From Patescibacteria group bacterium (GTDB taxonomy: Bacteria; Patescibacteriota; Patescibacteriia; 2-02-FULL-49-11): 64,000 nt of DNA. Below, one piece after another: positions 165 through 60,467 of this stretch. The notes under the pieces are model-generated. The model searched no databases. It was not told where the DNA came from and was given only the letters and a program-made list of their open reading frames with translations. The stretch's first letter is position 1. The number at the start of each line of letters is the position of its first letter. The stretch spans positions 102 through 64,101 of the forward strand of contig JBAZQN010000010.1 in assembly GCA_041645165.1 (NCBI GenBank), written 5' to 3'. The position numbers and the translations under genes are program-made.

Positions 165-272
165 GAAGCGAAGGAATACCAATTTTTCGAGGACTTATGC
201 CTGTAGTCAGGTAGGTATAAGCGCGAGGGTAGTTGGGTCGCGTCCGCAGAAAAATTGTGTATTCCTGAGCGA
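165..272 (+). ncRNA. Conserved ~108-nt structured element (copy 1 of 2) in the 5' leader of clpC; three predicted stems
   Basis: Near-identical copy at 60359-60467 upstream of another + gene. Stem CTTATGCCT/AGGTATAAG is CTTATGCCT/AGGCATAAG in copy 2, a G-C to G-U neutral change. Stem CGCGA/TCGCG has a variable loop. Outer GGAATAC/GTATTCC pairing. Confidence 0.4.
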
Positions 273-346
273 GAAAGAACCTGAGTGAGCAGTCACTTTT
301 TTAGGGATTGACTAATTTTAATAAAACATCATAATAAGACCTATGT

Positions 347-2845
347 ATGACAGAAAACTCCATACTCAATAAATTCACCTCGCACTATCAGCATGTAGTG
401 AGCAATGCCTACCGCTTTGCGATGTATGCTAAGGCCCCCCACATTGAACCGATCCACCTCTTGTGGGGCTTGGTAAGCGAAACAGGATCGCTCGCGCACG
501 AAATCCTGCGAAAAGCAGGCCTTCCCCCTCCTCCCCTCCCGCCGCTTGAGGGGGAGATAAAAAGCGCGCCAAGCTCCGTCTTTGCCCTTCCCATCACCGA
601 TACGGTGAAGGCGGTGATAAAAAAATCAGTGCTGGCCGCTTCCCGCTACCATCACAAATACATCGGCACCGAACATCTGCTTCTTGGCCTTCTCAACAGC
701 AGGGACGCAGTGGTCGAGAGCGCGCTCCAAGACCATCGGATTACCATCCCTGCGCTCAAGAAACACGTCGCGCTCGTAATGAAATCCACCTCGCGCTTCC
801 CGGATCTCACCCAGGCAATCTCCCGCGATGAAATGGAAGACGAAGAAGATGAAACCCGCACCCATTCGTCGAAAACAAAAACGCCTGCATTGGATTTTTT
901 TGCCAATGAGCTGACCTCCGTTGCCGCGCAGGTGCGCCTAGATCCCGTCATAGGCCGCGCAAAAGAAATCAACCGCATCATCCAAATCCTTTCCCGAAAG
1001 ACAAAAAATAATCCTATCCTCCTCGGCGACCCCGGGGTGGGAAAAACAGCGATTGTGGAAGGGCTGGCAAAACGCATCTGGGAGGGTAATGTGCCAGATC
1101 TCCTTCTGCGCAAACGCATTTACAGCCTCGACCTTACCCTCCTGGTCGCCGGCACGATGTACCGCGGCGAGTTTGAATCGCGCATCAAGCAAGTGCTCGA
1201 TGAAGTGCGCGCCGATCCCAATATCATCCTTTTCATCGACGAGATCCATAATATTATCGGCGCAGGGTCGGCCTCCGGGTCGCTCGATGCGGCGAATATC
1301 CTGAAACCCGCGCTCGCGCGGGGGGAAATACACTGCATCGGCGCGACGACGTATGAGGAGTACAAACAGCACCTTGAAACCGATCCTGCCCTTGAGCGGC
1401 GTTTCCAGGCGGTGCAGGTAAGTGAGCCATCGGTCGATGAAACCGTAGAAATTCTCAAAGGAGTAAAGGCATCCTATGAAACGCATCACCATGTGAGCGT
1501 CGAAGACGACGCATTAACGGCGGCCGCGCACCTCTCCGCGCAATATCTGCCTGAAAAACGCCTTCCGGACAAGGCAATCGACCTGGTGGACGAAGCATCC
1601 GCCATGAAACGCATAAGCGGTTCAGAAAACCCCTATTTGCGCGAATTGCGGACAAAAGAATCGGCCTTCGAGGCGGTGAAGAAGGAAAAAGAGGAAGCGG
1701 TGAAGAAGGAAAATTTTCCCCTTGCGCTCCAGAAAAAAGAAGAAGAAAGAGCCATTGCCGCAGCTATTGCAGATTTGCATAAAAATGAACAAAACCGCGA
1801 ATCAAGCGCTTTGCGCTACGGTAACGTGACCCGGGAAGATATTATCCACGTGCTTTCCGACATTACCGGAATCCCCTTGGGACGGATTGAAGAGGAAGAG
1901 CGGGGCCACCTGTTAAATCTGGAAACGCTCCTTACTGAGCGGATTATTGGCCAGGAAGAAGCGCTCCATGAAGTGGCAAACTTTATCCGGCGTTCGCGCG
2001 CCGGCTTATCCGGCGACAAGCGCCCCTTGGGTTCATTCATTTTCCTCGGGCCTTCTGGGGTAGGGAAGACGGAAACCGCGAAAGTGCTCGCGGAAGTGGT
2101 GTTCCGCGATCCGGAAGCGTTCATAAGATTCGACATGTCGGAATTCAGCGAAAGCTTCAATATCTCCAAACTTATCGGCGCGCCCGCAGGCTACGTAGGG
2201 TATAGGGAGGGCGGAAAACTCACCGAACTCGTCAGGCGCAAGCCCTATTCAGTCATTCTCCTGGATGAAATAGAGAAAGCGCACCCCGATATATTCAATC
2301 TCTTCCTCTCGATCCTTGATGACGGTTTTCTGACCGATGCGACCGGGCGAAGAGTAAATTTCCGGAATACTATTATCATCATGACCTCGAACATCGGGCT
2401 CTCCTTGTTTAACGCGAATGCCTCGCTTGGGTTCTCGTCTGCAGACGCGAAACGCGGAACCGTATATGAAGAAACGAAAATGCGGGTGTTGGGCGAACTG
2501 CATGAACGGTTTCGCGCCGAATTTTTAAACCGCATCGACCGTATCATGGTCTTCCGCCCTTTAAACACCGCATCGCTTAAAACAATCGCCGAACAGCAGC
2601 TCCGCCAAATCCAAGCGCGCCTCGCCAAACAATCCATTACGCTCACATGGGATAAAAAAGCAGCCGATCTCATCACGAAGCTTTCCCAGAGTCCCAACGA
2701 GGGCGCGAGAAAAATTTCACGGGTTTTAAGGCAACACGTGGAGGACGCGCTCACCGATCTTTTGCTTAACAGTAAAGCGCGCACCGGCTCGGTGATCCGC
2801 CTTACTGTACGAAAAGACGCTATCGCGCTTGTGAGCTCCAAGTAA
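347..2845 (+). CDS. clpC: ATP-dependent Clp protease ATP-binding subunit (ClpC-type AAA+ chaperone)
   Basis: 832-aa ORF. Clp_N repeats. Two Walker A motifs ([16 protein letters not shown]). Short middle linker. LGF ClpP-docking tripeptide (NASLGFSS). Confidence 0.85.
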
Positions 2846-2847
2846 AC

Positions 2848-7090: not shown

Positions 7091-7150
7091 ATTTTCAATG
7101 CTCAATTTCTCCCCCTACGAGAGATCTCCCGAAGGGAGACAATTTTCAAA
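7091..7150. repeat. ~60-bp intergenic repeat ATTTTCAATGCTCAATTTCTCCCCCTACG.G.GATCTCCCGAAGGGAGACAATTTTCAA (G/C-tract palindrome family)
   Basis: Near-identical at 53201-53260 and, inverted, at 51146-51205. Confidence 0.7.
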
Positions 7151-7245
7151 TAATTCTCAATGCATCAATATTTCAATGTTTGAAAATTGAATCATTGGAG
7201 CATTAATTGTAAATTGAGAATTGGAAATTGAAAATTTTATCATGT

Positions 7246-7427: not shown

Positions 7428-7531
7428 GTCATTCCTGATTTAATCAGGAATCCAGAAACAAAAATACGCAAAAACGTTCGTGGTGTCGGTTTTTATTTTC
7501 TTCTCTGGATTCCCGCTTTCGCGGGAATGAC
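7428..7531. mobile_element. ORF-less hairpin-bounded mini-element (GTCATTCC-hairpin-GGAATCCAGAAA ... TTCTCTGGATTCC-hairpin-GGGAATGAC)
   Basis: Same termini as the GIY-YIG-carrying elements at 15526-15897 and 19158-19612 and as the copy inside tsaC at 44401-44498. The left 25 bp recur at 56306-56330. Confidence 0.6.
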
Positions 7532-7559: not shown

Positions 7560-10328
7560 TTGAGTATAGTTGATAATTTCATCCAACCGCCGCATACTGA
7601 TAACATGAATACCCTTTCTCTTTCTGATTCTCTTGCAGAACTCGGGCCCATGGGAAAACGGCTGAGCTCCCGTTTGAAGAGCCTCGGCATTATGAGCATC
7701 GAGGATCTGCTCTTTCACTATCCCTTCCGCTACGAGGACTGGTCTCGAGTTCTGCCTATCAAAAATCTCATCCCCGGCATGCAAGCCACGGTGAGCGCGA
7801 CGGTAAAAACTATTTCATTCCGTCCCGGGCGATGGAAGATAAAACCGCTCATTGAAGCGCTCCTTGAGGACCAGAACGGCGATCACATTCGCGCGGTATG
7901 GTTCAACGCGTCATACCTTATTAAAACCCTTACCCCGGGCACCGCGCTTCTGCTTTCCGGAAAAATTGACCGCTCAAAAGACGCGCTCCAACTCACCCAT
8001 CCCGTATGGGAAAAAAACACAACTCACGCCCCAATGCATACCGCGCGTATTATCCCGATTTATCATGCGACGAACACCATAAGCCAAAAACAGATCCGCT
8101 CGCTTATGGCAGTTTCTCTTCAAAATATCCCCTCCATCCCTGATCCGCTTCCCTCGTGGATAGCGTCAGGCGCCAAAATCATCCCTCTTGATCGCGCGAT
8201 CCGCGCCATCCATTTCCCGTCCACGTGGGCGGCTTTGAGTGCGGCGCAAACGCGGCTGAAATTCGACGAATTATTCCTTTTACAACTGCGCAGCGCGCTT
8301 GCCCGACAGGAGCTTACTGCGCTTAAAAGTACCCCCATTCCGTTCCATGAGACTCTTACGCGCACATTCGTTGCCCGTCTCCCTTTCAAGCTCACCACCG
8401 CACAGAGAAAAGCCGCCTGGGAAATTATTAAAGACCTCGGGAAGGGCAAGCCGATGAACCGCCTCCTGGAGGGCGATGTGGGATCGGGAAAGACCGTGGC
8501 CGCCGCCATTGCCGCCTTAAATGTGATTGCGAGCGGCCATCAGGTCGCCTATCTTGCGCCCACCGCCATACTCGCGGCACAGCAGTTCGCGACGTTTTGC
8601 CGTCTTTTTTCCGACACCCCCCTATGTCCCCCCCTTACGAAGGGGGGGAACGGGGGGGTCTTCACCATCGCGCTCATCACGCAGGGGGATATCAGGGTGA
8701 ATAAAATTCAAAGTTTCCCGCCTCAGCGGGATCCCGCATACCTTAGAGAATCAGATTCAAGGGGCGGGACAAAACCCAAAGTTCAAAATGAGAGAGGGTA
8801 TAAAAAAATTTCTAAGCAGGAGCTTGCAGTACTGTTAAGAAAAGGGAGAGTCGACATTTCGATTGGCACACATGCTTTACTTTCTGAACATATCCAATTT
8901 CAAAAACTGGCACTGGTCATCGTCGATGAACAGCACCGTTTCGGCGTCAACCAGAGAGCTGCGCTCCTGCGCAGATCAGCGCAGATAAAAACGCAGATAG
9001 ACGCAGATGCTGATGACTTTCTATATAAGGAATTGACATATCAAATAAGAGGAGCAGCATTTGAAGTGGCAAATAGCTTAGGCCTCGGTTTGAAAGAAAA
9101 TGTGTACCAAAAAGCACTTGAAGAATCATTAAAACAAAAAAGGCTCTTATATGAGCGAGAAAAATCAATTAATGTCTCATTCCACGATACGCGCGTGGGC
9201 AGCTTTAAGCCTGATTTTATTATTGACCAAAAGGTTATCGTAGAACTTAAAGCACTACCTTTTATTGGTAAAATTGAAGAAAAGCAACTCTGGAGTTACC
9301 TCAAAGGTTCAAATTACAAAGTTGCGTTACTCATCAATTTTGGCAACGATAAACTGGATATCAGAAGAATAATCTACGACACCGCGAGAGATAAAACGCC
9401 CCAACCGTCACCAAATCAGCATGCATCTGTGATTAATCAGCACATGTCTGCATCAAGTGATCTGCGACCATCTGCGTCTCATCTGCGTGAATCTGCGTAT
9501 GTGCCGCATCTGTTGTCCATGACCGCCACTCCCATTCCCCGTTCGCTTGCGCTGGTCGCCTACGCGGACCTAGATTTGTCAATCATCAATGAGCTGCCCA
9601 AAGGCCGCGCGCCGATTACCACTAAAATCATCCCGCCTGAACAACGGCAAGACGCGTATAATCTCATCAAGCAAGAGCTCTCATCCGGTCATCAAGCATT
9701 TATCATTTGCCCGCTCATTGATCCTTCCGATGCCTTAGGCGTGAAATCGGTGAAAGAGGAAGCAGAGCGCTTGAAACGAGAACACTTCCCCCATGTGAAT
9801 CTCGCCGCGCTCCATGGCCGCATGACGCCTGCGTCAAAAGACAAGATCATGGGCGCGTTTGCACAAGGAAGTATCCAGGTGCTGGTATCCACGCCAGTGG
9901 TCGAAGTGGGCATTGACGTGCCGAATGCCACGGTAATCCTTATAGAAAGCGCAGAACGGTTTGGGCTGGCGCAACTCCATCAGCTCCGCGGCCGGGTGGG
10001 AAGGAGCACCCACTCCTCGTGGTGCTTGCTCGCGACCGAAACAGAACAAGAGGAGGCGTTGAAACGCCTCCACGCGGCGGTCTCCTCCCGCGACGGCTTT
10101 GCGCTCGCCGAAATTGACCTAGAGATGCGCGGACCGGGAGAAGTGTACGGCACCCAGCAATCCGGCTTCCTCGACACTTTAAAAATCGCCAAGCTTACCG
10201 ATGTCATCATCCTTAAGCAATCAAAAGAGACGGTTGCCCGCCTCCTCCAAGAAGATCCCGCGCTTTCCCGCTACCCCTTACTCCAGCGCCGCCTCGCCGT
10301 ATTCGAGGAATCAGTGCATTTTGAATAG
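7560..10328 (+). CDS. recG: ATP-dependent DNA helicase RecG carrying three in-frame repeat or domain insertions
   Basis: Wedge N-terminus. Walker A GDVGSGKT. DEQH. TATPIPRS. RGRVGR. 922 aa against the ~700 typical of RecG, which is my recollection rather than a measured comparison. Confidence 0.85.
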   Translation: MSIVDNFIQPPHTDNMNTLSLSDSLAELGPMGKRLSSRLKSLGIMSIEDLLFHYPFRYEDWSRVLPIKNLIPGMQATVSATVKTISFRPGRWKIKPLIEALLEDQNGDHIRAVWFNASYLIKTLTPGTALLLSGKIDRSKDALQLTHPVWEKNTTHAPMHTARIIPIYHATNTISQKQIRSLMAVSLQNIPSIPDPLPSWIASGAKIIPLDRAIRAIHFPSTWAALSAAQTRLKFDELFLLQLRSALARQELTALKSTPIPFHETLTRTFVARLPFKLTTAQRKAAWEIIKDLGKGKPMNRLLEGDVGSGKTVAAAIAALNVIASGHQVAYLAPTAILAAQQFATFCRLFSDTPLCPPLTKGGNGGVFTIALITQGDIRVNKIQSFPPQRDPAYLRESDSRGGTKPKVQNERGYKKISKQELAVLLRKGRVDISIGTHALLSEHIQFQKLALVIVDEQHRFGVNQRAALLRRSAQIKTQIDADADDFLYKELTYQIRGAAFEVANSLGLGLKENVYQKALEESLKQKRLLYEREKSINVSFHDTRVGSFKPDFIIDQKVIVELKALPFIGKIEEKQLWSYLKGSNYKVALLINFGNDKLDIRRIIYDTARDKTPQPSPNQHASVINQHMSASSDLRPSASHLRESAYVPHLLSMTATPIPRSLALVAYADLDLSIINELPKGRAPITTKIIPPEQRQDAYNLIKQELSSGHQAFIICPLIDPSDALGVKSVKEEAERLKREHFPHVNLAALHGRMTPASKDKIMGAFAQGSIQVLVSTPVVEVGIDVPNATVILIESAERFGLAQLHQLRGRVGRSTHSSWCLLATETEQEEALKRLHAAVSSRDGFALAEIDLEMRGPGEVYGTQQSGFLDTLKIAKLTDVIILKQSKETVARLLQEDPALSRYPLLQRRLAVFEESVHFE
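8616..8661 (+). repeat. G/C-tract palindromic mini-insert inside recG, in frame (encodes ..PLCPPLTKGGNGG..)
   Basis: CACCCCCCCTATGTCCCCCCCTTACGAAGGGGGGGAACGGGGGGGTC. Same family at 15079-15117, 47275-47316 and 59489-59531. Confidence 0.7.
8715..8775 (+). repeat. CGGGATCCCG-core ~60-bp repeat unit inside recG, in frame
   Basis: TTCCCGCCTCAGCGGGATCCCGCATACCTTAGAGAATCAGATTCAAGGGGCGGGACAAAA. Same family at 15428-15490, 23123-23183 and 43921-44028. Confidence 0.65.
8958..9500 (+). mobile_element. In-frame insertion in recG encoding a GxxExxY (PD-(D/E)XK-like) domain, bounded by inverted heptamer arrays (CGCAGAT x4 on the left, ATCTGCG x4 on the right)
   Basis: Left array 8971-9009 and right array 9459-9497, period about 10-11 bp. 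The encoded segment LTYQIRGAAFEVANSLGLGLKENVYQKALEESL...VELKAL...LINFG has the hallmarks of the GxxExxY family and lies between the DEQH and TATPIPRS motifs. Confidence 0.6.
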
Positions 10329-11472: not shown

Positions 11473-11490
11473 AATTGAATTACACCGTTC

Positions 11491-11511
11491 GTTCAATCTT
11501 GCAGATTGAAC
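11491..11511. repeat. REP hairpin GTTCAATCT-TGC-AGATTGAAC plus conserved 3' flank
   Basis: The ~60-nt unit CGTTCGTTCAATCTTGCAGATTGAACGATTGTTTTTATCG.CGAACA..CCGGTA is also at 30436-30500 and 41497-41561. Confidence 0.75.
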
Positions 11512-11598
11512 GATTGGTTTTATCGCCGAACAGGCCGGTAATGCACATAATATCCAAGGATAGAGGCAGACGGTCGAATGGCTGATCAACTCTGCGGA

Positions 11599-11730: not shown

Positions 11731-12864
11731 CTATCGAAATACTGTTTCAGGATAACATCTGCAACCTGACAATGATGAAGTACACCTGGTATAAATAGGG
11801 CCTGAAAATTCCTTCCCGCACCACTCACCATAATTACATTCACTATCAATCGTGCATACCCTACTGGGGTCCTTTTCACACTTCCATACTTCTTCACCGG
11901 ATCGAACATTTGTATAGCTCCTTGTACATTTATCAAATGGGGTACGACACCATAACGTGTAATCGTTAGTACCGTACTTACAGACCTCTCCATGCTTAAT
12001 ATGGCACCTTCGGCTCGTGCCCGACACATCGCAATACATCTGTATCATAAGACCGTCATCTCGATACTCCGGGCATCCCTGATCTTCCGCATTAACCTCA
12101 CAAGGATCACCTGGTTCAACTAATTCACAAATCCCAAGATCTCCAATTTCTTTATAACAGAAATTATAGAAAGGTGCGTCCGGAATCGAGGAATCTCTCT
12201 TAGATCTACATTCGATATTAGTCCTACATCCATCCAAGCACGCTTGTTTCTCAAAAGAACACACACAGGGCGGATTAGGACACTCGTTGCACGGCTCCCC
12301 TGTTGATTTAAACCCATTAGGAGATCCATTAGCATCAACCGTAACGCACGTATCAGCCGATGTGCCGGTGAGCGGCGAAAGCGTAGCGGGAGTTGCGCAC
12401 TTTTCCGTCGCCTTATACGCCCTGCACGGCGTGATCCACCACGCGTCATTTGAGAAAATGGTGGCAGGCTTGCCTTCGGTTGGAATGCCTTTGAGTGAAA
12501 TAATAATCCAGTTGGGCCATACCCATGCGGCAAGCAGGATGATGAATAACCCCACCACAGTGCCGGTTACCATCTTTTTGCCTTTTTCCACCTCTTCTGC
12601 CTTGCCTTGAGACATAAGAAGGCTAAATCCCCCGTAAATAAACAACGCAAGCGCAATAGCACCACAGAGCGACAGTAAAAACCTCACCCCTTTGCTTGCG
12701 ATGAGTAAAAGGTCGCACAGCGAACATGCGCCGCATGTAAAACAGTCAGTAGCTACTGCCTCTTTGGAAAAAAAGCTGTACGCCTGCGCAGAAAAAACGG
12801 AGTAACTAAACACTCCAACAATTATTAATAAGATGATAAGTATTGGTTTTCTTAAACTAGGCAT
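11731..12864 (-). CDS. Membrane protein with a VirB2/TrbC-like pilin module and a Cys-rich C-terminal ectodomain
   Basis: Helix-loop-helix AIALALFIYGGFSLLMSQGKAEEVEKGKKMVTGTVVGLFIILLAAW, then more than 40 Cys in about 250 aa. Confidence 0.45.
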   Translation of the reverse strand: MPSLRKPILIILLIIVGVFSYSVFSAQAYSFFSKEAVATDCFTCGACSLCDLLLIASKGVRFLLSLCGAIALALFIYGGFSLLMSQGKAEEVEKGKKMVTGTVVGLFIILLAAWVWPNWIIISLKGIPTEGKPATIFSNDAWWITPCRAYKATEKCATPATLSPLTGTSADTCVTVDANGSPNGFKSTGEPCNECPNPPCVCSFEKQACLDGCRTNIECRSKRDSSIPDAPFYNFCYKEIGDLGICELVEPGDPCEVNAEDQGCPEYRDDGLMIQMYCDVSGTSRRCHIKHGEVCKYGTNDYTLWCRTPFDKCTRSYTNVRSGEEVWKCEKDPSRVCTIDSECNYGEWCGKEFSGPIYTRCTSSLSGCRCYPETVFR

Positions 12865-12886
12865 AAATTAACGAAACCGCCCCTCA

Positions 12887-12955
12887 AGTCCCCTCCTTGC
12901 TAAGAGCCTGTCCCGAGCTTGACGCGGGAAGGGGATGGGGAGGTATCTCCTTAGT
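12887..12955 (-). repeat. Conserved leader element (minus orientation) immediately 5' of the 11731-12864 gene
   Basis: Reverse complement matches 6462-6515 almost exactly. Confidence 0.45.
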
Positions 12956-13035
12956 AAAAAAGATTGTCGTGCCAGAGGCAGATCAGCCCATGGCTGAAAA
13001 TTCCGATACGATAAATTAAATCCTAAAGAGCCGCC

Positions 13036-14541
13036 TCATGGGGTGATAACTTCATTATCTCCAGAATTTTGCCCACCTACCGTATATACGCCTGGCGGAC
13101 AATGCGATGACTGATGGGTTCCAAGATCCTGGCCTGACTCAAAATGCCACCACTCTTCGCAAAACCGATCTAAGCCCACTTCATTCATCTTCGCTTGGAA
13201 CTCCTTGACCACGGGACCCGTGGGCGGGGTGCCGCTAGGCGGTGTGTAAGCTCTGGTAAGCATATTGCATGCGGCGTCATTAATTACCCCTGAAGGTAAA
13301 ATGCCGCTTGATATTTCAAGGCACACGTCTACCGCATACCCTGCCTGGTGCGGCGCGTCGCATGAAGGCACTGCCGCTTTATTGCAACCTGTACAACTAT
13401 ACGGACAACTGGGAGGGGTAGGTACGCTGTAATCATAGCACCCTCGCAAGCCAGCCTGGTTCGCCATGGAGCGGTACGCCGAATTGATGACAAGCGTGAA
13501 TTTCACATTCGAGCTTTTCCAACTATTTTCTCCTTTAAGCCAATCTTCAAGCTTTTTATTATTAAGTTTCGCTATCACTTGAGACATAAGCCGCGGCGGC
13601 TGTTCCACCTGGCTATTATCAACGCGGATAGGTGCCTTGGGGAATACTGTGGGGTCCGCGATCGATAGAAAATTAGGCGACGATTCTGTCTTGGTGCACG
13701 CCTGCGGGCCGAAATTCATATTCACATTAGTCGCTTGCGATTTTACGTCTTCCAGAGTGCTCAATGCGGTATCAAACTCCACAAGACGCGGGTTGATGGT
13801 GTAAAAGAGCAGATAAGAGGTAAGCGCGATGATGAGCCCGGTGATGGCGCCCATGATGGTGCTTTTCGCGCTCGTGATTTTTTCAGGCGACCCGCCTGCC
13901 ATGAGGTACTGGAACCCGCCGATCATGATGCCAATCACCGCAAGAAGCCCTATGGACGCGATGATGAAATAATAAAGGCCGGCAATGTACTCGCCAATTG
14001 TTTTACTGCTCAAGTCAATGCTCCTCCCCGCGACAAAATCCGTGCCGGGAATAGATATTTGGGGTTTAAATTTAATTGCTTCGCGCGGTTTAGGTTCAAT
14101 ATACACTTTCAATTCGCCGCCGCCGGAAGGAACAAACGCCTGCACCGATTGTTTCACGTCCGGACACGCGCACTGGCCTGGATCTTGGTAATTGCACGCA
14201 TAGTATAAGCCATTCTGGGTTTTAACGCCTTTCACGGTTATCTCCCCTTTTACGGAACCTGCACTTACTATATTCTGCTTAGCTCCAGTATACGATTCAT
14301 AAATCAACGTTTGCCCACATTCACCTGGTTGGAGACCGCTAAAACAAATGTTTTTAACCTTATCATCTGTCTTTACGTTTTGCCCTAATAGAGCATTACT
14401 TTCAGCCGCTTGCGGATCATTAAGCTGGCACACGCAACACTGCGCGCTGGCAGCAAGGGGGAAAAAATGGATACCAACAATGCCTGTTATGAAAATTATT
14501 GAGAGAATTACCTTCTGTATCCTTAAACGGCAATATAACAT
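13036..14541 (-). CDS. Fusion protein: Cys-rich N-terminal region, VirB2/TrbC-like pilin module, and C-terminal M15 (VanY-like) peptidoglycan peptidase
   Basis: Pilin module IGIMIGGFQYLMAGGSPEKITSAKSTIMGAITGLIIALTSYLL. M15 motifs SAYRS, HQAGYAVDV, EEWWHFE. Confidence 0.6.
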   Translation of the reverse strand: MLYCRLRIQKVILSIIFITGIVGIHFFPLAASAQCCVCQLNDPQAAESNALLGQNVKTDDKVKNICFSGLQPGECGQTLIYESYTGAKQNIVSAGSVKGEITVKGVKTQNGLYYACNYQDPGQCACPDVKQSVQAFVPSGGGELKVYIEPKPREAIKFKPQISIPGTDFVAGRSIDLSSKTIGEYIAGLYYFIIASIGLLAVIGIMIGGFQYLMAGGSPEKITSAKSTIMGAITGLIIALTSYLLFYTINPRLVEFDTALSTLEDVKSQATNVNMNFGPQACTKTESSPNFLSIADPTVFPKAPIRVDNSQVEQPPRLMSQVIAKLNNKKLEDWLKGENSWKSSNVKFTLVINSAYRSMANQAGLRGCYDYSVPTPPSCPYSCTGCNKAAVPSCDAPHQAGYAVDVCLEISSGILPSGVINDAACNMLTRAYTPPSGTPPTGPVVKEFQAKMNEVGLDRFCEEWWHFESGQDLGTHQSSHCPPGVYTVGGQNSGDNEVITP

Positions 14542-14553
14542 AATACCACGGTT

Positions 14554-15426
14554 TTAAAATTCAAGCTCTACTAACCTCTCAATCTTTTTCTCCGTAATCT
14601 CTCCCGTCAAACGGTAAGAATTTATAAACAGGGCAGGTATCCCGTCAATATCAAGCGCCTGCGCCTCATCCATGCCCTGATTCACAAGATCAGTGGTCGC
14701 GCGGGTTTCTACACAGCGGTTGAATTCTTCAAGATTAAGCCCTAATTCTGATGCTATTATACCATACTTCGACGCAGATGCTCGCAGATAAGACGCAGAT
14801 TCACGCAGATCGTCGTTCATGACTTCGTCACGGGTCAATTTATCTATAAATTCCCAAAATTTACCTTGATTTTGCGCGCAACGGGCGGCAAGGGCGGCGG
14901 GGCGGGAGGCAGGATCTAAAGGATTCGGGAAATCTTTCCATACCAGATGCGCAGATGGTCGCAGATAAGACGCAGATTCACGCAGATCGTCGCGGATATA
15001 CGCAGATATTTGTTTCACCGCATCGCGGCACACTTCAACCACATGGTCGCAAAATAATACGATATTGACTGGTTCGACACCCCCCTCTTGCATCTCCCCC
15101 CTTTCTAGGGGGGAGGATATTGCTGGCAACACCGGGTCAGTGGGCAATACCGTGGGCGCAAACGGCGTATCTTCGCGCAGAGGCGCTAAAGGTTTAACCA
15201 GCGTGATGAGGGGGTCGCTAAAGGTGCCTTGCGCGAAACTGTCAGAGGCAAGCTCTGACGCTACATTTTGATTTTGGACTACTCTCTCTTGTTGATCGTC
15301 TTGAGACGACACAATGAACCCGAGCGCGCTCTTCCCAACTGCAAGCGCTCCCAAACCAAGGACGGCGAGAGAGAACAGCGTAATAGTGAGCGTGCGCGGG
15401 TGTATTTTCATAACTTTAAATCTCAA
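14554..15426 (-). CDS. DsbA-like thioredoxin-fold thiol:disulfide oxidoreductase carrying repeat-derived in-frame inserts
   Basis: DsbA-like C-terminus GIPALFINSYRLTGEI. Signal/TM N-terminus. Two direct CGCAGAT arrays (14770-14815, 14948-15010) encode DDLRESASYLR twice. G/C-tract insert at 15079-15117. Confidence 0.5.
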   Translation of the reverse strand: MRFKVMKIHPRTLTITLFSLAVLGLGALAVGKSALGFIVSSQDDQQERVVQNQNVASELASDSFAQGTFSDPLITLVKPLAPLREDTPFAPTVLPTDPVLPAISSPLERGEMQEGGVEPVNIVLFCDHVVEVCRDAVKQISAYIRDDLRESASYLRPSAHLVWKDFPNPLDPASRPAALAARCAQNQGKFWEFIDKLTRDEVMNDDLRESASYLRASASKYGIIASELGLNLEEFNRCVETRATTDLVNQGMDEAQALDIDGIPALFINSYRLTGEITEKKIERLVELEF

Positions 15427-15427
15427 A

Positions 15428-15490
15428 TCCTCACCGCTCAGGCGGGATCCCGCATACCTTAGATAAAATAATTCAAAGTGCGGGACAAAG
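15428..15490. repeat. CGGGATCCCG-core repeat unit (intergenic)
   Basis: TCACCGCTCAGGCGGGATCCCGCATACCTTAGATAAAATAATTCAAAGTGCGGGACAAAG. Confidence 0.65.
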
Positions 15491-15525
15491 TTTAAAGCTC
15501 AAATGGATGACAAAACTGCACTAAT

Positions 15526-15897
15526 GTCATCCCGGGCTTGACCCGGGATCCAGAAATAACAATAACACTAAAAATCATCAGAAAGATCTTTCCATCCTGG
15601 ATTTACCTCCTCAATCAAACGCAATTTCCACGCCCGTTTCCACCGTTTCATTTGTTTTTCCCTCGTGATTGCCGCATAGATATCAGAAAATTCTTCATAG
15701 TACACCAGTGTATGTACGTGATATTGCCGGGTAAATCCTGGTACCGCTCCCACCTTATGCTCATCTACTCTGCGTCTAAGGTCGTTCGGTACTCCAACGT
15801 ACAAAGTTCCGTTTTTCTGACTCGCCATGATGTACACGTAATAACTCTGCATGATTTTTGTTTATTTTTTCTGGATTCCTGCCTGCGCAGGAATGAC
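15526..15897. mobile_element. Hairpin-bounded element carrying a GIY-YIG gene
   Basis: Left end GTCATCCCGGGCTTGACCCGGGATCCAGAAA. Right end TTTCTGGATTCCTGCCTGCGCAGGAATGAC. Same termini as the ORF-less copies at 7428-7531 and 44401-44498. Confidence 0.6.
15568..15852 (-). CDS. GIY-YIG nuclease family protein
   Basis: 94 aa, YVYIMASQKNGTLYVGVPNDLRRRVDEH. About 80% identical to the 19200-19484 paralog. Confidence 0.7.
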   Translation of the reverse strand: MQSYYVYIMASQKNGTLYVGVPNDLRRRVDEHKVGAVPGFTRQYHVHTLVYYEEFSDIYAAITREKQMKRWKRAWKLRLIEEVNPGWKDLSDDF

Positions 15898-15949
15898 AAT
15901 GACTGAAAATTGAACATTGAGAATTGAAAATTTCCACACTGTTCTGCTT

Positions 15950-43903: not shown

Positions 43904-43920
43904 TAGAAAAAATTTTCAAT

Positions 43921-44822: not shown

Positions 44823-44984
44823 ACGCTAAGCGCGGTGGAAATCCCAATACCCAAACCCCAATGACCAATTAAATCCCAATTACCAATACCAAAATTGAGC
44901 ATTAGGGAATTTGAGCATTGATTGAGCATTGGACATTGGAAATTGGTCATTAATTTGACATTTGAAATTTGTCATTGAGATTTC

Positions 44985-47900
44985 TCAATCTTGTGTAACA
45001 AGATTGAGCAGTTTCCCTTTCACATACACCTTCCTCGCCACCTCTTTTCCTTTCAAATACTTCTGAATCTCGGGCAGTGCGTTTGCCGCCGCATATACCT
45101 CTTCTTCTCCCGCATCGCGGGACACTTCTGCCACTCCCCGCTTCTTCCCATCGATCTGTATGACCACCTGCACAGTCTCCTGTGTCATCAGCGCGAGATC
45201 AAAAGCCGGCCACGGCTCTTTGAAAATAGACCGTGCGTTGCCAAGCTGTTCCCATAACTCTTCCGTGATATGCGGCGCAAACGGCGCAAGAAGAATGAGG
45301 AGCGCCTTGTAGCCGGATAAAGTATCAGCGCGGTCTTCAAGGGCAGGTAATTCGTTCGTGTACGTCATGAGCTGTGCGATCGCAGTATTAAATTTAAACG
45401 CTTCAATATCTTCTGTAACTTTCTTAATCGTCTGATGCGCCAAACGCGCAAGCGCGTCGCTTTTAAACGCACTTACTACGCCCTTAAACGCCTGCGTATG
45501 AATGCGTGGTGAATGCGTATGAATGCGGGTCCCCAAGGACCATACGCGCTCCAAAAACCTCCTTATCCCTACGATGCTGCGCATGCTCCAAGGTTTTGCA
45601 TCTTCAAACGGGCCCATGAACATTTCATACAATCGCATAGTGTCTGCGCCGTAGATTTCGATGACTTCATCGGGATTGATGACATTGCCTCGCGATTTCG
45701 ACATCTTTTGCCCGTCCTCTCCCAAGATCAGCCCTTGATTTTTTAACGTAAGGAAAGGCTCGTCAAAATCAATAATCCCCAGCCAATGCAGCACCTTGGT
45801 AAAAAACCGCGCATACATCAGATGCATGACTGCATGCTCTGCCCCGCCGACATAGAGGTCTACCGGAAGCCACGCATGAATCTTCTCGCGGCTTGCAAAT
45901 TCTTTCGCATTGCGAGGATCCGTATAGCGGAAAAAATACCAGGAAGAGTCCACAAAAGTATCCATCGTATCGCACTCCCTCCGCACGTCTTCGCCATACG
46001 AACCGCACTTGGGGCATCTCACCTCATGGAATTTTTTTGACCGCTTAAGAGGCGACTCCCCCGTAGGCCGGAAATCAACATCATCAGGCAACCGCACCGG
46101 TAGATCTTTTTCCGGGACCGGCACCTCACCGCACTTCACACAATAGATAATGGGAATCGGCGCTCCCCAATAGCGCTGACGCGAGATGAGCCAATCACGC
46201 AGACGATAGGTAACCTGCTTCCTGCCAAACTTTTCTGCCATTTTTAAAAGAGCCTCTTCCGACGACAGTCCGGTAAACTCCCCCGACTCGACAAGCATCC
46301 CGTGTCCTATATAACATCCTACATCCATAACCTCCTTGAGTAATTCCGGAAATTCAAGGGTCCCCATATCTTTCATCGTGAAATGTCCCCGTCCTTTTAA
46401 TTCTCTCAGTTCAGCGTTTAATTCCTTCGCATACCACCGTGCACTTTCCTTGCGGTATTCTTCTTCATTGTCGGAAATAAAGATGATAATTTTTCTCACC
46501 TGATCCTTAATCTTTGGATTTATGTCAAAATCATATAACGGACCAAGACGCTGACGATTCTCGGTGATGGTTTTCCTACCAGGCGCCACCAAAAGGAGGG
46601 TATCAATTTTTGCATCCGTCTCTCCCAGCCACCGCACCGCAAATGCGCCGCCCGCGCTATGCCCTATCACTACTGAATTTTCATCTAAGGGAAGGTGTGC
46701 TACCTGCTTTTTCCATTCATCATATTGCGGCTCCCAAGCATTCGGCATGAGTGGATTAAATACCTTGAAACCTCGTTCTTCCAACTTCGGCGTTATCCAT
46801 CCCAACCAGTGATGGGTATTTTCTGGAATATAATCAGCTTTCCCGCGTGGATCAGATTTTGGAGATCCGTGTACCATAAGCACCTTTCTCTCTTTTGGCC
46901 GTATTACACACTTGATCGGCAAATTGAATTTTTTTGCAAACACATAATCCCGCTCGTCATGTGCCGGAACGGCCATAATTGCGCCCGTACCATAACCCAT
47001 GAGCACGTAATCAGCAATCCAAATTGGTATCTCTTCCTTAGTGGCGGGATTGATTGCGGTTATCCCTTGTAATTCAACACCAGTTTTTTCCTTCTGTAAC
47101 TGACCACGCTCCAGTTCAGTTTTGCTTTTAGCGCTCTGAATATATTGTTCAACAAATTTGAAATTTGAAATTTGAAATTTGAAATTTTCAATTATGGGGT
47201 GTTCCGGTGCGAGCACCATGTAAGTCGCCCCAAATAACGTATCCGGCCTCGTGGTGAATACTTCGATCCATAACTCCCCCTCTCCCCCTCTTACCTTAAG
47301 AGGGGGTTGGGGGGCGTTACTCACTATAGGAAATTTTATCAATGCTCCTTCACTTCTCCCAATCCAATTCTGCTGCATGAGTTTGATAGGTTCCGGCCAA
47401 TTAATCTTTTCAAGGCCTGAAAGCAGTCCTGCCGTGACTCGCTTGTTCCTTTTCGCGTCTTGTGTCCGATCCTCGATAAAATCAGTGATTTTGAAAAACC
47501 ACTGCGCAAGCTCTTTCTGCACTACCGTATGCTTGCAGCGTTCGCATTTCCCGTCCACCACTTGCTCGCGCGCGAGCACGGTTTGGCAGTGTGCACACCA
47601 ATTCACCGGGGCTAATCTCTTATAGGCCAAGCCGTGTTGGTAGAGCAAGAGGAAAAACCATTGCGTCCAGCGGTAATAATCAGGATCTGCGGTATTCACT
47701 TCCCGCGACCAATCATAGGAAAACCCCAGCGACTTGATCTGGCGCCGAAAATTTTCAATGCTCTTCGCAGTGGTCTCCGCGGGATGCACACCCACTTTGA
47801 TCGCGTAATTCTCCGCAGGAAGCCCGAACGCGTCCCATCCCATCGGATGAAGCGCCATAGAGCCCCGCATGCGCAAATAGCGGCTCACGATATCGGTGGC

Positions 47901-48104
47901 AGTATAGCCTTCGGGGTGCCCTACATGGAGCCCTTGCGAGGAAGGATAGGGAAACATGTCGAGCACATAGCGGCGATCTTCGCGCTTTCTCCCCTCATCA
48001 TCAGCGCGAAACGCGCCCTGCGCTTCCCAGCGCTCCTGCCATTTCTGCTCAATTTTTTTATGGTCGTAGGAGTGAGACATAACAGTACATAATCCAAAAA
48101 CCAA
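44985..48104 (-). CDS. leuS: Leucyl-tRNA synthetase with an in-frame ~200-aa alpha/beta-hydrolase domain insertion and two small repeat inserts
   Basis: HPEGY-type HIGH region and KMSKS. Insert ...VHGSPKSD...VVIGHSAGGAFAVRWL...LLLVAPG lies between the editing domain and YRLRDWLISRQRYWG. G/C-tract insert at 47275-47316. AAATTTC x4 at 47155-47185. Confidence 0.85.
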   Translation of the reverse strand: MVFGLCTVMSHSYDHKKIEQKWQERWEAQGAFRADDEGRKREDRRYVLDMFPYPSSQGLHVGHPEGYTATDIVSRYLRMRGSMALHPMGWDAFGLPAENYAIKVGVHPAETTAKSIENFRRQIKSLGFSYDWSREVNTADPDYYRWTQWFFLLLYQHGLAYKRLAPVNWCAHCQTVLAREQVVDGKCERCKHTVVQKELAQWFFKITDFIEDRTQDAKRNKRVTAGLLSGLEKINWPEPIKLMQQNWIGRSEGALIKFPIVSNAPQPPLKVRGGEGELWIEVFTTRPDTLFGATYMVLAPEHPIIENFKFQISNFKFVEQYIQSAKSKTELERGQLQKEKTGVELQGITAINPATKEEIPIWIADYVLMGYGTGAIMAVPAHDERDYVFAKKFNLPIKCVIRPKERKVLMVHGSPKSDPRGKADYIPENTHHWLGWITPKLEERGFKVFNPLMPNAWEPQYDEWKKQVAHLPLDENSVVIGHSAGGAFAVRWLGETDAKIDTLLLVAPGRKTITENRQRLGPLYDFDINPKIKDQVRKIIIFISDNEEEYRKESARWYAKELNAELRELKGRGHFTMKDMGTLEFPELLKEVMDVGCYIGHGMLVESGEFTGLSSEEALLKMAEKFGRKQVTYRLRDWLISRQRYWGAPIPIIYCVKCGEVPVPEKDLPVRLPDDVDFRPTGESPLKRSKKFHEVRCPKCGSYGEDVRRECDTMDTFVDSSWYFFRYTDPRNAKEFASREKIHAWLPVDLYVGGAEHAVMHLMYARFFTKVLHWLGIIDFDEPFLTLKNQGLILGEDGQKMSKSRGNVINPDEVIEIYGADTMRLYEMFMGPFEDAKPWSMRSIVGIRRFLERVWSLGTRIHTHSPRIHTQAFKGVVSAFKSDALARLAHQTIKKVTEDIEAFKFNTAIAQLMTYTNELPALEDRADTLSGYKALLILLAPFAPHITEELWEQLGNARSIFKEPWPAFDLALMTQETVQVVIQIDGKKRGVAEVSRDAGEEEVYAAANALPEIQKYLKGKEVARKVYVKGKLLNLVTQD

Positions 48105-50819: not shown

Positions 50820-51068
50820 ATGTCCCTCACCTCGTACCACGACCCCATTTCGGTGCTTGCCTCCTTCCGCGGAGGCGAAGTGAAACCCGTGGCGTTCAAA
50901 TGGGGAGGGCGCGACTGGCACGTAAAACAGGTGAATCTCGTGAGCGCCTCGCGCGACGGCCGCGCCAAACTCATATATTTCTCCGTCTCAGACGAAGCAA
51001 ACGCGTTCAAACTCCAATTCAATAGCGAAACATTGGAGTGGGCGCTGGAGGAAGTGTGGCATGATTAA
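50820..51068 (+). CDS. Hypothetical small protein between lexA and dinB
   Basis: 82-aa ORF in the same orientation. No recognised motif. Confidence 0.35.
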   Translation: MSLTSYHDPISVLASFRGGEVKPVAFKWGGRDWHVKQVNLVSASRDGRAKLIYFSVSDEANAFKLQFNSETLEWALEEVWHD

Positions 51069-51145
51069 TTTTCAATTATCAATTTTCAATCAATGACCTA
51101 ATGAATCAATTTTCAAACTTTGAACATTGCGAAATTGAAAATTGT

Positions 51146-51205
51146 TTGAAAATTGTCCCCCTTCGGGAGATCCCCCGTAGGGGGAGAAATTGAGCATTGA
51201 AAATT
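51146..51205. repeat. Inverted copy of the ~60-bp intergenic repeat
   Basis: Reverse complement matches 53201-53260 and 7091-7150. Confidence 0.65.
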
Positions 51206-53161: not shown

Positions 53162-53200
53162 GACAGAAATTCTAATTTCTAAATCCTAAAAACTCTAAAA

Positions 53201-53260
53201 ATTTTCAATGCTCAATTTCTCCCCCTACGGGGGATCTCCCGAAGGGAGACAATTTTCAAT
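53201..53260. repeat. ~60-bp intergenic repeat copy
   Basis: Near-identical to 7091-7150. Followed at 53275-53350 by an AT-rich unit near-identical to 22545-22630. Confidence 0.7.
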
Positions 53261-53357
53261 CAATATCCCAATGTCATAATTTTCAAACGTTTGATAATTG
53301 TTTAATTGAAAATTAAATGAAAATTGAAGCTTGAAAATTGAAAATTATCAAAACAGC

Positions 53358-58410: not shown

Positions 58411-59984
58411 TAATTTGATAATATAACGAGATAATGCTTCGCTTCTTCTTGAGTGGTGATTTTTCCTTCCAGCTGCGCTTCGCGGATGCGCGTTAATATT
58501 TTCCCCACTTCCGGCCCCTCGCCTATGCCAAGCATGGTCATGATGTCGTGACCGGAGAGAAGCGGTTTTGGCAGGGTATGCTTGCCTTTTTCCTTGAGCG
58601 CCTCAATGCGAACGCGCATACGTTTATAGTCGGCAATCGTCCCCTTGCCATCCTTGGCAATCGTAGCCGCTCCATCCGCATAAGAGAGCTTGAGAAGTTC
58701 TTCGCCTAATAAGGGATCGCGGAAGAAATATTTCTCAATGGTACTGGGGCGCAATTCGTCCACATCGCCGTGGACAAAAAGAAGGTGATGGCGGATGAGC
58801 GCACATACGCGATTCGCATCAACTCCGATGCCGGTGGGGCTGGTGAGTTTGAGCCGCTCAATAAGAGAAGCTACCATTTCCGCGCCCACCCTGTCGTGGT
58901 CGTTAAACCGTATCCGATCGGCGCCATGCGCTTCAGGGGTGGTGAGCGTGGGGGGTTTCCCTATGTCATGCAAAAGCGCCGCAAGCGCCAACTCCGCATT
59001 CCAAAGCGGCTGCGGAGCAGGAAGCAAAACAGGATTGCCGAATTCTTGGGCAAAAGCAGGAGACTCAATCACCGCGAGCGCAAGCCGCGTGTGAGTCCAC
59101 ACGTCTCCCTCCGTATGGAATTCTTGCGGTTGCGGGCACCCTTTCATCGCCAGAAGCTCCGGCATCAAAATGGAAAATGTACCGCTCGACTCAAAAAGGT
59201 CAAACGCCGCCAAGGGATGTACATCAAGCGCTTTCAAGAATTCTTGCGCTATTACTTCCGCAGGAATAATCCTTGCGCCTTGGCTATCAAGGTCAAGTAA
59301 ATGTGTGATACTGCGCGCGATCGCATCCCAGGTAGAGGCCTCAATTGTAAACCCAAGAGATACGGCAAACCGCAAGCCGCGCAATGCGCGGGAGTAATCT
59401 TCTCTCATGCGCTCATCAGGGTTCCCCACCGTCCTTAATTTTTTATCCGTGAGATCCTCTAAACCGTTAAACTCATCAACAAGGATACCTCCCTTTTGTC
59501 CCCCCCTTAATAAGGGGGGGATGGGGGGGTCGGTCACCCGCATGGCCATCGCATTGATGGTAAAATCCCGCCGCCCTAAATCCTCCTTCAAGGGAAGCGC
59601 TGGGTCGGATTGCGTATCCACATCGCGGTATTTCCCCGTGCCCCACGCGTGTTCGGTGCGCGGGAGTGCAATATCAAGGGCTTCCACAGAGGAAGGTTCT
59701 GTCAGTTTCAATTTATATACCCCAAATGTCTTGCCGACATAATTCACCGCGCCGAAACGCGACAACTGGGCTTCAAGTTCCGGCGTTTCGACATTGCGCA
59801 CCACAAAATCATAGTCCTTCGTATCAGCGCGCTCCAATAGGCAATCCCGCACTGCCCCTCCCACTAAATACACCTCTGTCTGCGGCAGCGATGCACAGAG
59901 CGCGTCAGCCCAACCCAAAATACCGCTTTTGCGCAGTTCGTCCCTATAGGCTTTGAGAACACTATTGGCTTTTTGCGAATCCAT
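58410..59984 (-). CDS. cca: CCA-adding tRNA nucleotidyltransferase with HD domain; carries an in-frame G/C-tract insert
   Basis: YLVGGAVRDCLL. DYDFVV. HD motif LHDIGK. Insert PPIPPLLRGGQKGG is encoded at 59489-59531. Confidence 0.8.
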   Translation of the reverse strand: MDSQKANSVLKAYRDELRKSGILGWADALCASLPQTEVYLVGGAVRDCLLERADTKDYDFVVRNVETPELEAQLSRFGAVNYVGKTFGVYKLKLTEPSSVEALDIALPRTEHAWGTGKYRDVDTQSDPALPLKEDLGRRDFTINAMAMRVTDPPIPPLLRGGQKGGILVDEFNGLEDLTDKKLRTVGNPDERMREDYSRALRGLRFAVSLGFTIEASTWDAIARSITHLLDLDSQGARIIPAEVIAQEFLKALDVHPLAAFDLFESSGTFSILMPELLAMKGCPQPQEFHTEGDVWTHTRLALAVIESPAFAQEFGNPVLLPAPQPLWNAELALAALLHDIGKPPTLTTPEAHGADRIRFNDHDRVGAEMVASLIERLKLTSPTGIGVDANRVCALIRHHLLFVHGDVDELRPSTIEKYFFRDPLLGEELLKLSYADGAATIAKDGKGTIADYKRMRVRIEALKEKGKHTLPKPLLSGHDIMTMLGIGEGPEVGKILTRIREAQLEGKITTQEEAKHYLVILSN

Positions 59985-60358
59985 ACGGTACGATTATTCC
60001 AGTTAGGCCTCTTTACAGTCGGCGCTAACCGCAGACCCGCCTGCCTACGCCAGTTGCGGGGAACGGTAGTATGCTTAATGTTAAAATCTTCCCTGACGTA
60101 CGGAGCGTTCCCGAGGAAAGGCAATGGCGGGCAGGTAAACGCAGATCGTCACGCCCGCCTGCCATAAACCTGTCCACGAGATGAGTGATATCTGAAAAGG
60201 TCGGTACCAACAACGTTATTCTGTTGAACCTTCAAGGAAGGCACTGGCGGGCAGGCTTGACCTTATCGCAGATAAACGCAGATATTCTTCTTACTCATTG
60301 TACGATATTCTCTTATGAGATAATAGAGTATAGAGTGATTGTTTATTGTTCTTAACCA

Positions 60359-60467
60359 AGAAGCGAGGGAATACCAATTTTTCGAGGACTTATGCCTGTA
60401 GTCAGGCAGGCATAAGCGCGAGGCAGCTTAGGTCGCGTCCGCAGAAAAATTGTGTATTCCTGAGCGC
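60359..60467 (+). ncRNA. Conserved ~108-nt structured element (copy 2) ending 6 nt before the methyltransferase start codon
   Basis: See 165-272. Same orientation relative to the downstream gene. Confidence 0.4.

Follow-up and report, generated by a model that had tools for sequence, protein, structure and literature searches.

Two structured copies upstream of clpC and a methyltransferase gene may belong to a small foldback repeat family of the Candidatus Uhrbacteria clade

The stretch of DNA analyzed here (the window; 64,000 nucleotides [nt], positions 102 to 64,101 of contig JBAZQN010000010.1, assembly GCA_041645165.1, Patescibacteria group bacterium; G+C content, 48.8%) carries the same structured element twice. 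Copy A, with its conserved core at positions 165 to 272, lies upstream of clpC (347 to 2845, + strand; 832 amino acids [aa], recognized by its Pfam domains), and copy B, with its core at 60359 to 60467, lies upstream of a gene for a class I S-adenosylmethionine-dependent methyltransferase (60473 to 61054, + strand; RsmC-like, 193 aa) whose homologues are named 16S rRNA G1207 methylase RsmC. Both copies are on the + strand, cooriented with and upstream of the next gene, as a preliminary description of this DNA had reported. The cores align without a gap and are identical at 100 of 108 positions by blastn (164 to 271 versus 60359 to 60466; about 92%) or at 99 of 108 when columns are counted over 165 to 272, while a repeat search extends the similarity to 121 nt at 89% identity (156 to 276 versus 60351 to 60471). 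The look-alike stretches are therefore real and where they had been placed, and the original figure of about 88% identity is slightly low for the core. A search with a 29-mer of the element found exactly two occurrences in the window, and none of 100 shuffles contained it. Covariance-model hits span 163 to 275 (130.9 bits) and 60358 to 60470 (131.8 bits), and neither nhmmer nor two covariance models, one of them run without filters, found a third copy in the window. Our preferred reading, to which we give a probability of roughly 0.55, is that these copies belong to a lineage-specific family of small noncoding foldback repeats in the Candidatus Uhrbacteria clade, of the same kind as transposable elements of the miniature inverted-repeat type (MITEs), enterobacterial repetitive intergenic consensus (ERIC) sequences, and Correia elements. 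It is a new family within a known class, not a new class.

Both copies are predicted to adopt the same Y-shaped fold, in which a closing stem (P1), an internal loop, and a short helix (P1b) lead to two hairpins (P2 and P3) on a three-way junction. The minimum free energies (MFEs) are -43.7 kcal/mol for copy A and -50.3 kcal/mol for copy B, with z scores of -5.5 and -5.8, and none of 200 shuffles folds as well. The reverse strands fold 7 to 9 kcal/mol worse, and it is the same strand that has the advantage, by 3 to 10 kcal/mol, in every subtype described below. In copy A, P1 is a 17-bp stem between 172 to 188 (AGGAAUACCAAUUUUUC) and 249 to 266, with U258 bulged and double changes in 5 of its 17 pairs; the outer GGAAUAC/GUAUUCC pairing seen earlier is the outer part of this stem. 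The GA of the internal loop (189 to 190) and the GGA of P1b, together 189 to 193, stand opposite UCC (243 to 245), GCA (246 to 248), and then G249-A250. The P2 hairpin (194 to 221; CUUAUGCCUG...UAGGUAUAAG) has two G.U pairs, and a G-C pair is compensated to U-A in two of the related copies introduced below (L002 and L007). P3 (222 to 242) pairs CGCGA with UCGCG around a hypervariable 11-nt loop (227 to 237). The helices of copy B have the copy A coordinates plus 60195, all on the + strand. The P2 stem CUUAUGCCUG/CAGGCAUAAG had been described with one neutral change between the copies; the stem stands, but there are two C/U changes, giving the G.U pairs of copy A. Likewise, the P3 stem is confirmed but its loop is variable rather than completely different, as 5 of 11 positions differ.

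Beyond the core, copy A has outer arms that pair end to end, and the full foldback unit of 141 to 296 has an MFE of -55 kcal/mol (z score, -4.8). In the fold of this unit an outer helix, P0, joins CUCACUUA (147 to 154) to UGAGUGAG (282 to 289), and the orthologous copies L049a and L047 retain the outer helix with a changed sequence. As a family-wide feature, P0 was not supported, as the pairing of a copy's own flanks could not be distinguished by duplexfold from that of flanks combined across copies (mean, -17.0 versus -15.5 kcal/mol), and we accepted P0 only in copies whose full fold shows it. The internal loop differs between subtypes: in the long type UUUC-GA-GGAC stands opposite GUCC-GCA-GA-AAAA, and in the short types GA stands opposite GA. 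GA/GA is conserved across all subtypes, including L047 and L049a. The loop appears to be a tandem G.A loop that is kink-turn (k-turn)-like in the long type. Six long-type copies fit the k-turn in C-stem, 3-nt bulge, tandem G.A, and A/U-rich noncanonical stem, whereas the GA/GA loop of the short types is symmetric and lacks the 3-nt bulge; the likeness is one of sequence pattern only.

Further copies are dispersed in the intergenic DNA of a few related groundwater bacteria of Candidatus Uhrbacteria. A one-genome-per-species scan with the junction pattern TTTCGAGGAC-N32-62-GTCCGCAGAAA returned four, on four contigs of Candidatus Uhrbacteria RIFCSPLOWO2_02_FULL_49_11 (MGER01), along with six other matches that were chance hits, and metagenome contigs searched with the junction pattern gave only the four MGER01 copies again and chance matches. 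The four are 82 to 95% identical to the window copies, and their flanks are unlike the window except for other dispersed repeats. L002, flanked on one side by a small minus-strand open reading frame (ORF) at its start and on the other by ftsW/rodA at its stop, is antisense to both. L005 and a rodZ-like gene are convergent, and L006a occupies the gap that separates dnaK from the following gene, on the opposite strand. L007 is upstream of uvrC and cooriented with it, the only such case among these four long-type copies. A second covariance model, built on eight sequences, added two more diverged copies. One, L006b, is the fifth MGER01 copy, antisense and 33 nt upstream of dnaJ, of the short type found in L047; the other, L049b, lies in sense orientation between two minus-strand genes. 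A single 22-kb locus of GCA_040757655 carries two copies, L049a and L049b, in opposite orientations 9 kb apart. Four of the five MGER01 copies are antisense to the adjacent gene and, over eight sites, four copies are sense and upstream and four are convergent or antisense. The neighboring genes (clpC, the RsmC-like methyltransferase gene, uvrC, ftsW/rodA, the rodZ-like gene, dnaK, dnaJ, and a pilin gene) form no coherent set. Altogether the family is known so far from 12 distinct copies of 90 to 156 nt each, all intergenic, from five genomes or assemblies; besides the MAG of the window, MGER01, and GCA_040757655, the assemblies GCA_040960315 and GCA_040960375 carry it. Finally, two public assemblies break inside the element, as expected for a multicopy repeat: L026 starts at model position 80, and the contig of L050 also starts within a copy.

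The clpC site was compared across the contigs of fetched ClpC homologues (L047 to L053); one Candidatus Uhrbacteria metagenome-assembled genome (MAG) encodes a ClpC with 93% identity to the one in the window. With the exception of L050 and L053, whose sequence stops a short way upstream of clpC, all of these contigs have clpC divergent from pilM. A diverged homologue of the element fills the site in L047/L048 (ClpC, 94% identical), L049 (81%), and L050 (90%), with scores of 37.1 and 28.7 bits under the first covariance model and 66.7 and 51.9 bits under the second, and no element was found in the clpC-upstream intergenic region of L051 to L053 (ClpC, 63 to 65% identical). In these homologues P1 is kept by compensation, GGAAUACC/GUGUAUUCC having become GGAACUGC/GUCAGUUCC, and the inner part is a single hairpin in which the 5' half of P3 is missing. 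The outer arms of copy A, L049a, and L047 look orthologous (GTAACTCCTCACTTA versus GTACGTGCTCACTGA and TGAGTGAGCAGTCAC versus TCAGTGAGCATTTAC). Moreover, a TTGACT-N16/17-CATAAT block stands just before the clpC start in the window, L047, and L049 to L053. Its -35 hexamer is invariant, its -10 hexamer is nearly so (TATAAT in L051 and CATACT in L053), its spacer varies, and the -10 box ends 7 to 11 nt before the start codon. In the window this promoter occupies 308 to 335 of the + strand (TTGACT-16-CATAAT; 10 of 12 positions as in the consensus), downstream of copy A, and clpC appears to be almost without a leader. Both copies had been described as lying in 5' leaders, but with the gene's own promoter between copy A and the ATG, copy A is outside the clpC leader; it sits between two back-to-back divergent promoters. 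Two smaller differences were noted near this promoter. Window positions 308 to 350 have a 4-nt duplication (ATGTATG) relative to L047, and positions 115 to 240 of L050 hold a different repeat, GTTCCGCGTTATTCTGCG...GCGGAAACTTACGCGGAAATGCGC, between the conserved promoter and the ATG, where it was called as a 41-aa ORF.

For copy B, the claim of a leader position stands, as it lies between a promoter block and the methyltransferase ATG, which follows the last P1 base by 11 nt. The block (60296 to 60328, + strand; CATTGTAC...GATAAT AGAG) recurs in L054 and L055, and CATTGTACGATATTC...(G/T)ATAATAGAG is common to the region upstream of the methyltransferase gene in all three. A simple consensus scan missed it, and we take it for the promoter because it is conserved and because the intergenic DNA of L055 is only 68 nt long. 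L055 (protein, 89% identical) is an empty site: only 9 nt (AAGTCAGAC) separate the block from the ATG, and the window has in their place a segment of about 144 nt (60329 to 60472, + strand) consisting of copy B and a left outer arm, with no right outer arm. L054 (90% identical, from the same assembly as L047) has about 175 nt at this site that fold into a similar rod (-47.7 kcal/mol; z score, -4.8), with the junction words CGAGGAC...CCGCAG flanked by CAAUU/AAUUG as in the element; neither covariance model detected it. We conclude that copy B is a genuine insertion in the 5' untranslated region (UTR), at a site that is polymorphic among close relatives and where the subtypes differ. A separate stretch of about 290 nt (59996 to 60285), between the start of the CCA-enzyme gene and the promoter block, is also absent in L054 and L055. 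It holds the repeated words GGCGGGCAGG/CCCGCCTGCC and AAACGCAGAT and is read as another insertion into this intergenic region, unrelated to copy B.

The two sites bear directly on whether the element is a gene-specific cis-regulatory 5' leader (a riboswitch, an RNA thermometer, or a protein-binding leader) that coregulates clpC and the methyltransferase gene. Like riboswitches and the cis-regulatory leaders of Rfam, it has a stable, conserved structure with a multihelix junction upstream of genes; both window copies are cooriented with the next gene, and copy B is in a 5' UTR close to the ATG. The conserved promoter downstream of copy A, however, largely refutes such a role for clpC. Moreover, other copies lie antisense beside unrelated genes, so that neither genes nor orientation are consistent, and orthologous genes in relatives either lack the element or have a different subtype. 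No expression platform was seen, in that there is no terminator and neither a Shine-Dalgarno sequence nor a start codon is sequestered in the predicted fold; in copy B the methyltransferase ATG lies outside the predicted structure, and no obvious Shine-Dalgarno sequence precedes it. The 17-bp closing stem and the near absence of unpaired junction bases are unlike ligand pockets. Finally, Rfam 15 returned only tRNAs from the window at the gathering score and nothing relevant at an E value of ≤10 for copy A or ≤1 for variant copies, in agreement with the first description, which had not recognized it as a known riboswitch or ribosomal-protein leader. A gene-specific leader is thus very improbable.

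Signs of insertion come from direct repeats around three of the units. The 9-mer TTTTTTAGG stands on either side of the full unit A, at 132 to 140 (offset, -31) and at 297 to 305 (offset, +22) of the + strand, the right copy running into GGGATTGACT of the clpC promoter, and it occurs only four times in the window on both strands, with two of the occurrences flanking unit A. L049b is flanked by TGGGAAGA (offsets, -29 and +22), and L049a is flanked by GGGATTG (-31 and +32), with eight of nine positions of a 9-mer matching at -33 and +30. The repeat-bounded units pair along almost their whole length, the outer arms of A and L049a right out to the ends. If unit A is taken out together with a single copy of the repeat, ...TTTTTTAGGGATTGACT... 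is restored directly before the -35 box. These repeats suggest candidate target-site duplications at A, L049a, and L049b. In addition, L049a and L049b have nearly the same sequence for about 95 nt and differ in their flanks, and cores in general are alike within a genome (copies A and B; L049a and L049b) and different across genomes at one site (A versus L047 versus L049a; B versus L054). Genome-specific cores with site-specific outer arms fit either the repeated insertion, at the same places, of whichever core is currently active or gene conversion among cores.

Such a combination could also arise if a core inserts into preexisting palindromes, which is among the points in favor of an element that acts at the level of DNA. 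It could be a cruciform or protein-binding site beside promoters, or it could be a single-stranded substrate of an HUH-type enzyme (like those of IS200/IS605 or of repetitive extragenic palindromic [REP] sequences with their REP-associated tyrosine transposase [RAYT]) or of a hairpin-targeting recombinase, with the outer arms as a split host hairpin. The strand asymmetry of the element, which tolerates G.T on one strand, does not depend on which way the neighboring DNA is transcribed; at the clpC site, copy A and its orthologues reach up to the -35 box and leave it intact; and copy B and the MGER01 copies show no target duplication. REP sequences and the bacterial interspersed mosaic elements built from them (BIMEs), with RAYT, and IS200/IS605-derived palindromes resemble the element in being strand-specific hairpins in intergenic DNA without target duplication at most copies. 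REPs, however, are single hairpins of 20 to 40 nt, and in the element a long closing stem joins the ends, while its two inner hairpins are unlike each other where IS200/IS605 ends resemble each other. No HUH transposase, RAYT, TnpA(Y1), or recombinase was found in the window. Moreover, the opposing orientations of L049a and L049b argue against a strict replication-strand bias, and the direct repeats outside the outer arms of three units are not predicted by a split hairpin. We consider a DNA-level role improbable.

The conservation of pairing raises a different possibility, that the copies are functional structured RNAs. In a model-guided alignment of eight distinct but related copies, which leans towards the model, 94.7% of cells have canonical pairing and both partners have changed in 14 of 35 pairs. 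On five pairing measures, not one of 500 column shuffles does as well, and sliding the 3' partners by 1 to 3 columns lowers pairing to 33 to 51%. G.U cells outnumber A.C cells by 17 to 3 (binomial P = 0.001 by cells and 0.07 by independent positions), which indicates that one strand is the folded strand. The covariation check with more copies that had been proposed thus turned out in favor of conserved pairing, with both G.U pairs and double changes present. The nine differences between copies A and B point the same way: five are in the 11-nt P3 loop (hypergeometric P = 4e-4), three are G.U-compatible changes in stems, and the last falls outside the fold. In P1 of L006a, a 1-nt deletion in the U-run is matched by one in the A-run, and both P0 and P1 are retained at the clpC site despite sequence turnover and ClpC identities of 81 to 94%. 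These observations, with the GA/GA loop in all subtypes and the folding advantage of one strand, would be accounted for by small RNAs, or by a protein-binding module with a k-turn-like loop and a three-way junction, that is transcribed from the + strand, selected for structure, and homogenized by gene conversion.

Several results weigh against such RNAs. No conserved promoter or terminator accompanies the element: there is no intrinsic terminator at the copies and no common -10/-35 at a fixed distance upstream of them, and a weak promoter-like site was seen upstream of L006b only. No transcript is known to run between the divergent promoters that enclose copy A and its orthologues, and half of the copies could be read by neighboring transcripts only as the reverse complement. 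Some copies are decayed (L005 in its 3' arm and L006a in P3), close relatives lack the element at the same sites, and the pairs were counted in a model-fitted alignment of few, related sequences. We regard functional structured RNAs as the main rival, though an unlikely one. Somewhat less likely again is a particular form of the idea, in which Patescibacteria have a hitherto undescribed Y-shaped or rod-like RNA module with a k-turn-like protein-binding loop that is selected on the + strand and that gene conversion or hairpin-targeted insertion copies from one promoter-proximal site to another. The element had originally been said to look like a functional RNA. The strong, strand-specific fold and its conserved pairing are confirmed, but dispersal, insertion polymorphism, and flanking direct repeats point to a repeat element.

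We favor a foldback repeat family because of that dispersal and polymorphism, the mixed orientation, the match of cores within genomes, the direct repeats, the assembly breaks, and the lack of an own promoter, terminator, or Rfam match. It is also favored because the intergenic DNA is crowded with other palindromic repeats and because other insertions occur at the same two regions. Conserved pairing is compatible with such a family, as the arms of a palindrome can remain complementary without selection on an RNA. The case is not one-sided, however. Compensatory changes and one-strand G.U pairs fit selection on a functional RNA as well, as do A/B differences that avoid the stems, and the orthologous-looking, covaried outer arms at the clpC site suggest long residence under constraint rather than repeated new insertion. 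Flanking repeats of 7 to 9 nt were found at only 3 of 11 copies, with no convincing repeat at the other eight: none was found at B, L002, L005, L006a, L006b, and L007, and those at L047 and L054 are unconvincing. The outermost arms are not the same from copy to copy, as inverted repeats recognized by a transposase usually are; the known copy number is small, at 12 distinct copies; and Pfam scans of 40 window ORFs gave no domain of a transposase, recombinase, or reverse transcriptase.

Known repeat families offer several parallels. ERIC sequences, or intergenic repeat units (IRUs), of Enterobacteria and Yersinia are imperfect palindromes of about 127 bp. Like the element, they are small, noncoding, and intergenic, lie in either orientation, are present or absent at orthologous loci, and have length variants with internal indels, and those inside operons are cotranscribed as a long RNA hairpin. 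They have no known sequence similarity to the element, however, whose host is of a Patescibacteria lineage and whose known copy number is low, and they are simple hairpins, whereas the core of the element is branched, with a tandem G.A loop. In Correia elements, TA is duplicated and the 26-bp inverted repeats are well conserved. The element differs in that its candidate duplications are 7 to 9 nt long and found at 3 of 11 copies, its outermost arms vary between copies, and no parent insertion sequence is known. It nevertheless shares with the Correia elements of Neisseria (also called NEMIS) and with other bacterial MITEs a size of about 100 to 155 nt, terminal inverted repeats that form a long stem, candidate target-site duplications, insertion by or in promoter regions and 5' UTRs, and subtypes with different internal parts. 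With respect to the features of MITEs, the P1 arms form 17-bp terminal inverted repeats, units A and L049a are paired to their ends, the small noncoding copies are dispersed, and orthologous sites differ by presence and absence. An autonomous partner, either a transposase or a matching insertion sequence, was not found in the 40 window ORFs or in plasmid and phage collections, where blastn gave no similar sequence. MITEs have been described, among other bacteria, in Coxiella (PMC5896051).

How a foldback repeat would behave at these sites can be outlined. Each copy consists of a conserved core of about 90 to 120 nt, one strand of which folds into P1, the tandem G.A loop, and a short helix topped by one or two hairpins, and in many copies copy-specific outer arms extend the core to a rod of about 135 to 155 nt. 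Copies would spread or overwrite one another by transposition, recombination, or both, presumably with an enzyme acting in trans. Pairing might be kept either because the substrate is the folded single strand or through palindrome arms that template each other. A copy downstream of a promoter, such as copy B, would be cotranscribed and would place a structure of about -50 kcal/mol 11 nt before the start codon. Copy B may thereby alter the translation or the mRNA stability of the methyltransferase, as far as the predicted fold goes, while copy A, upstream of its promoter, is probably silent cargo.

Genomes of Patescibacteria (the candidate phyla radiation) are small and usually called streamlined, yet the intergenic DNA of the window is dense in small palindromic repeats, which turn over even among close relatives and come to lie in promoter regions and 5' UTRs. 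The foldback family is a tractable case, because orthologous sites are found both filled and empty, there are several subtypes, and pairing is clearly conserved. If the repeats are merely selfish, they are an annotation issue, since they break assemblies and mimic regulatory RNAs, and they bear on how mobile DNA persists in reduced genomes without an obvious transposase. If instead the RNA structure is selected, they would be among the few candidate regulatory RNAs known in the phylum, and a shared RNA module would mean that a bacterium with a tiny genome reuses one module to tune the expression or mRNA stability of unrelated housekeeping genes. In either case, structured repeats present in two copies are easily taken for regulatory RNAs, and caution is warranted.

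Other identities were considered for the element and rejected. Hammerhead, twister-sister, and Y RNA had no Rfam match, and the junction is almost without an unpaired core. None of the scanned window ORFs, including the genes beside both copies, has a reverse transcriptase, recombinase, or TnpB/IscB domain as would go with a retron msr/msd, an IS110 bridge RNA, or a TnpB/IscB omega RNA. The ends of the element, AAGCGAGGGAA ... TTCCCUGAGCG, do not fit the R-box consensus of integron attC sites (RYYYAAC ... GTTRRRY), there is neither an array nor an integrase, and the sole GTTRRRY match falls within the P3 loop of some copies. The P2 palindrome as a CtsR, HrcA, or LexA operator is at odds with elements located at non-stress genes and with conservation over 108 nt, which far exceeds an operator. 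The outer ends GTAACTCCTCACTTA / GTGACTGCTCACTCA may resemble IS1 inverted repeats, a likeness on which we do not rely. An alignment of the three translated frames that are open, searched in case other copies had been called as spurious ORFs, matched none of 5.8 billion proteins. Viral contigs, scanned with two patterns, gave only chance matches, none of which a covariance model confirmed, and within the window the P3 loops had no complementary or identical targets beyond chance. A literature search returned no description of such repeats in Patescibacteria.

The window holds further repeats. AT-rich intergenic blocks of GAAAATTG-like periodic units of 7 to 8 nt occupy 7140 to 7241, 15897 to 15933, 22512 to 22640, 30621 to 30730, 44045 to 44106, 44916 to 44989, 47151 to 47206, 51067 to 51156, and 53199 to 53351; another lies at 2843 to 2955 of L007, and the blocks are common to a related MAG at about 80% identity. 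Two additional families of short hairpin repeats are G+C rich, namely, GTCATCCCGGGCTTGACCCGGGATCCAGAAA with its partner ...GGATTCCCGC..GCGGGAATGAC, and GCGGGATCCCGC. Sites of these hairpin repeats are 7428 to 7531, 15526 to 15565 and 15856 to 15897, 19158 to 19197, and 44401 to 44498, and also 8704 to 8787, 15420 to 15503, 23113 to 23154, and 43912 to 43995. A 300-nt repeat is found at 15525 to 15824 and 19157 to 19456. A repeat of 44 to 75 nt, GTTCGTTCAATCTTGCAGATTGAACGATTG..., lies at 11483 to 11557, 30432 to 30506, 41496 to 41570, and 41649 to 41692, near the 5' ends of large minus-strand ORFs, and may encode a shared N-terminal or signal sequence. Finally, three tandem 198-nt repeats (100%, 100%, and 77% identity) fall within a Cys-rich minus-strand ORF of 360 aa (61758 to 62351).

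Some of the window genes have unusual features of their own. RecG (7560 to 10328) has a PD-(D/E)XK nuclease domain (PDDEXK_3, aa 490 to 604) inserted within the helicase, and PDDEXK_3 was not seen in the RecG orthologues of L047 (737 aa) and L049 (735 aa). The leucyl-tRNA synthetase (44985 to 48104) has a Ser_hydrolase (alpha/beta hydrolase) insert at aa 429 to 587. A type IV secretion-like cluster spans 11731 to 23058 and 26826 to 41561, with two T4SS_pilin proteins, a TraG/VirB4-like ATPase, and PrgI; after it come three giant ORFs (1195, 1649, and 1674 aa) in which Pfam matches are almost absent.

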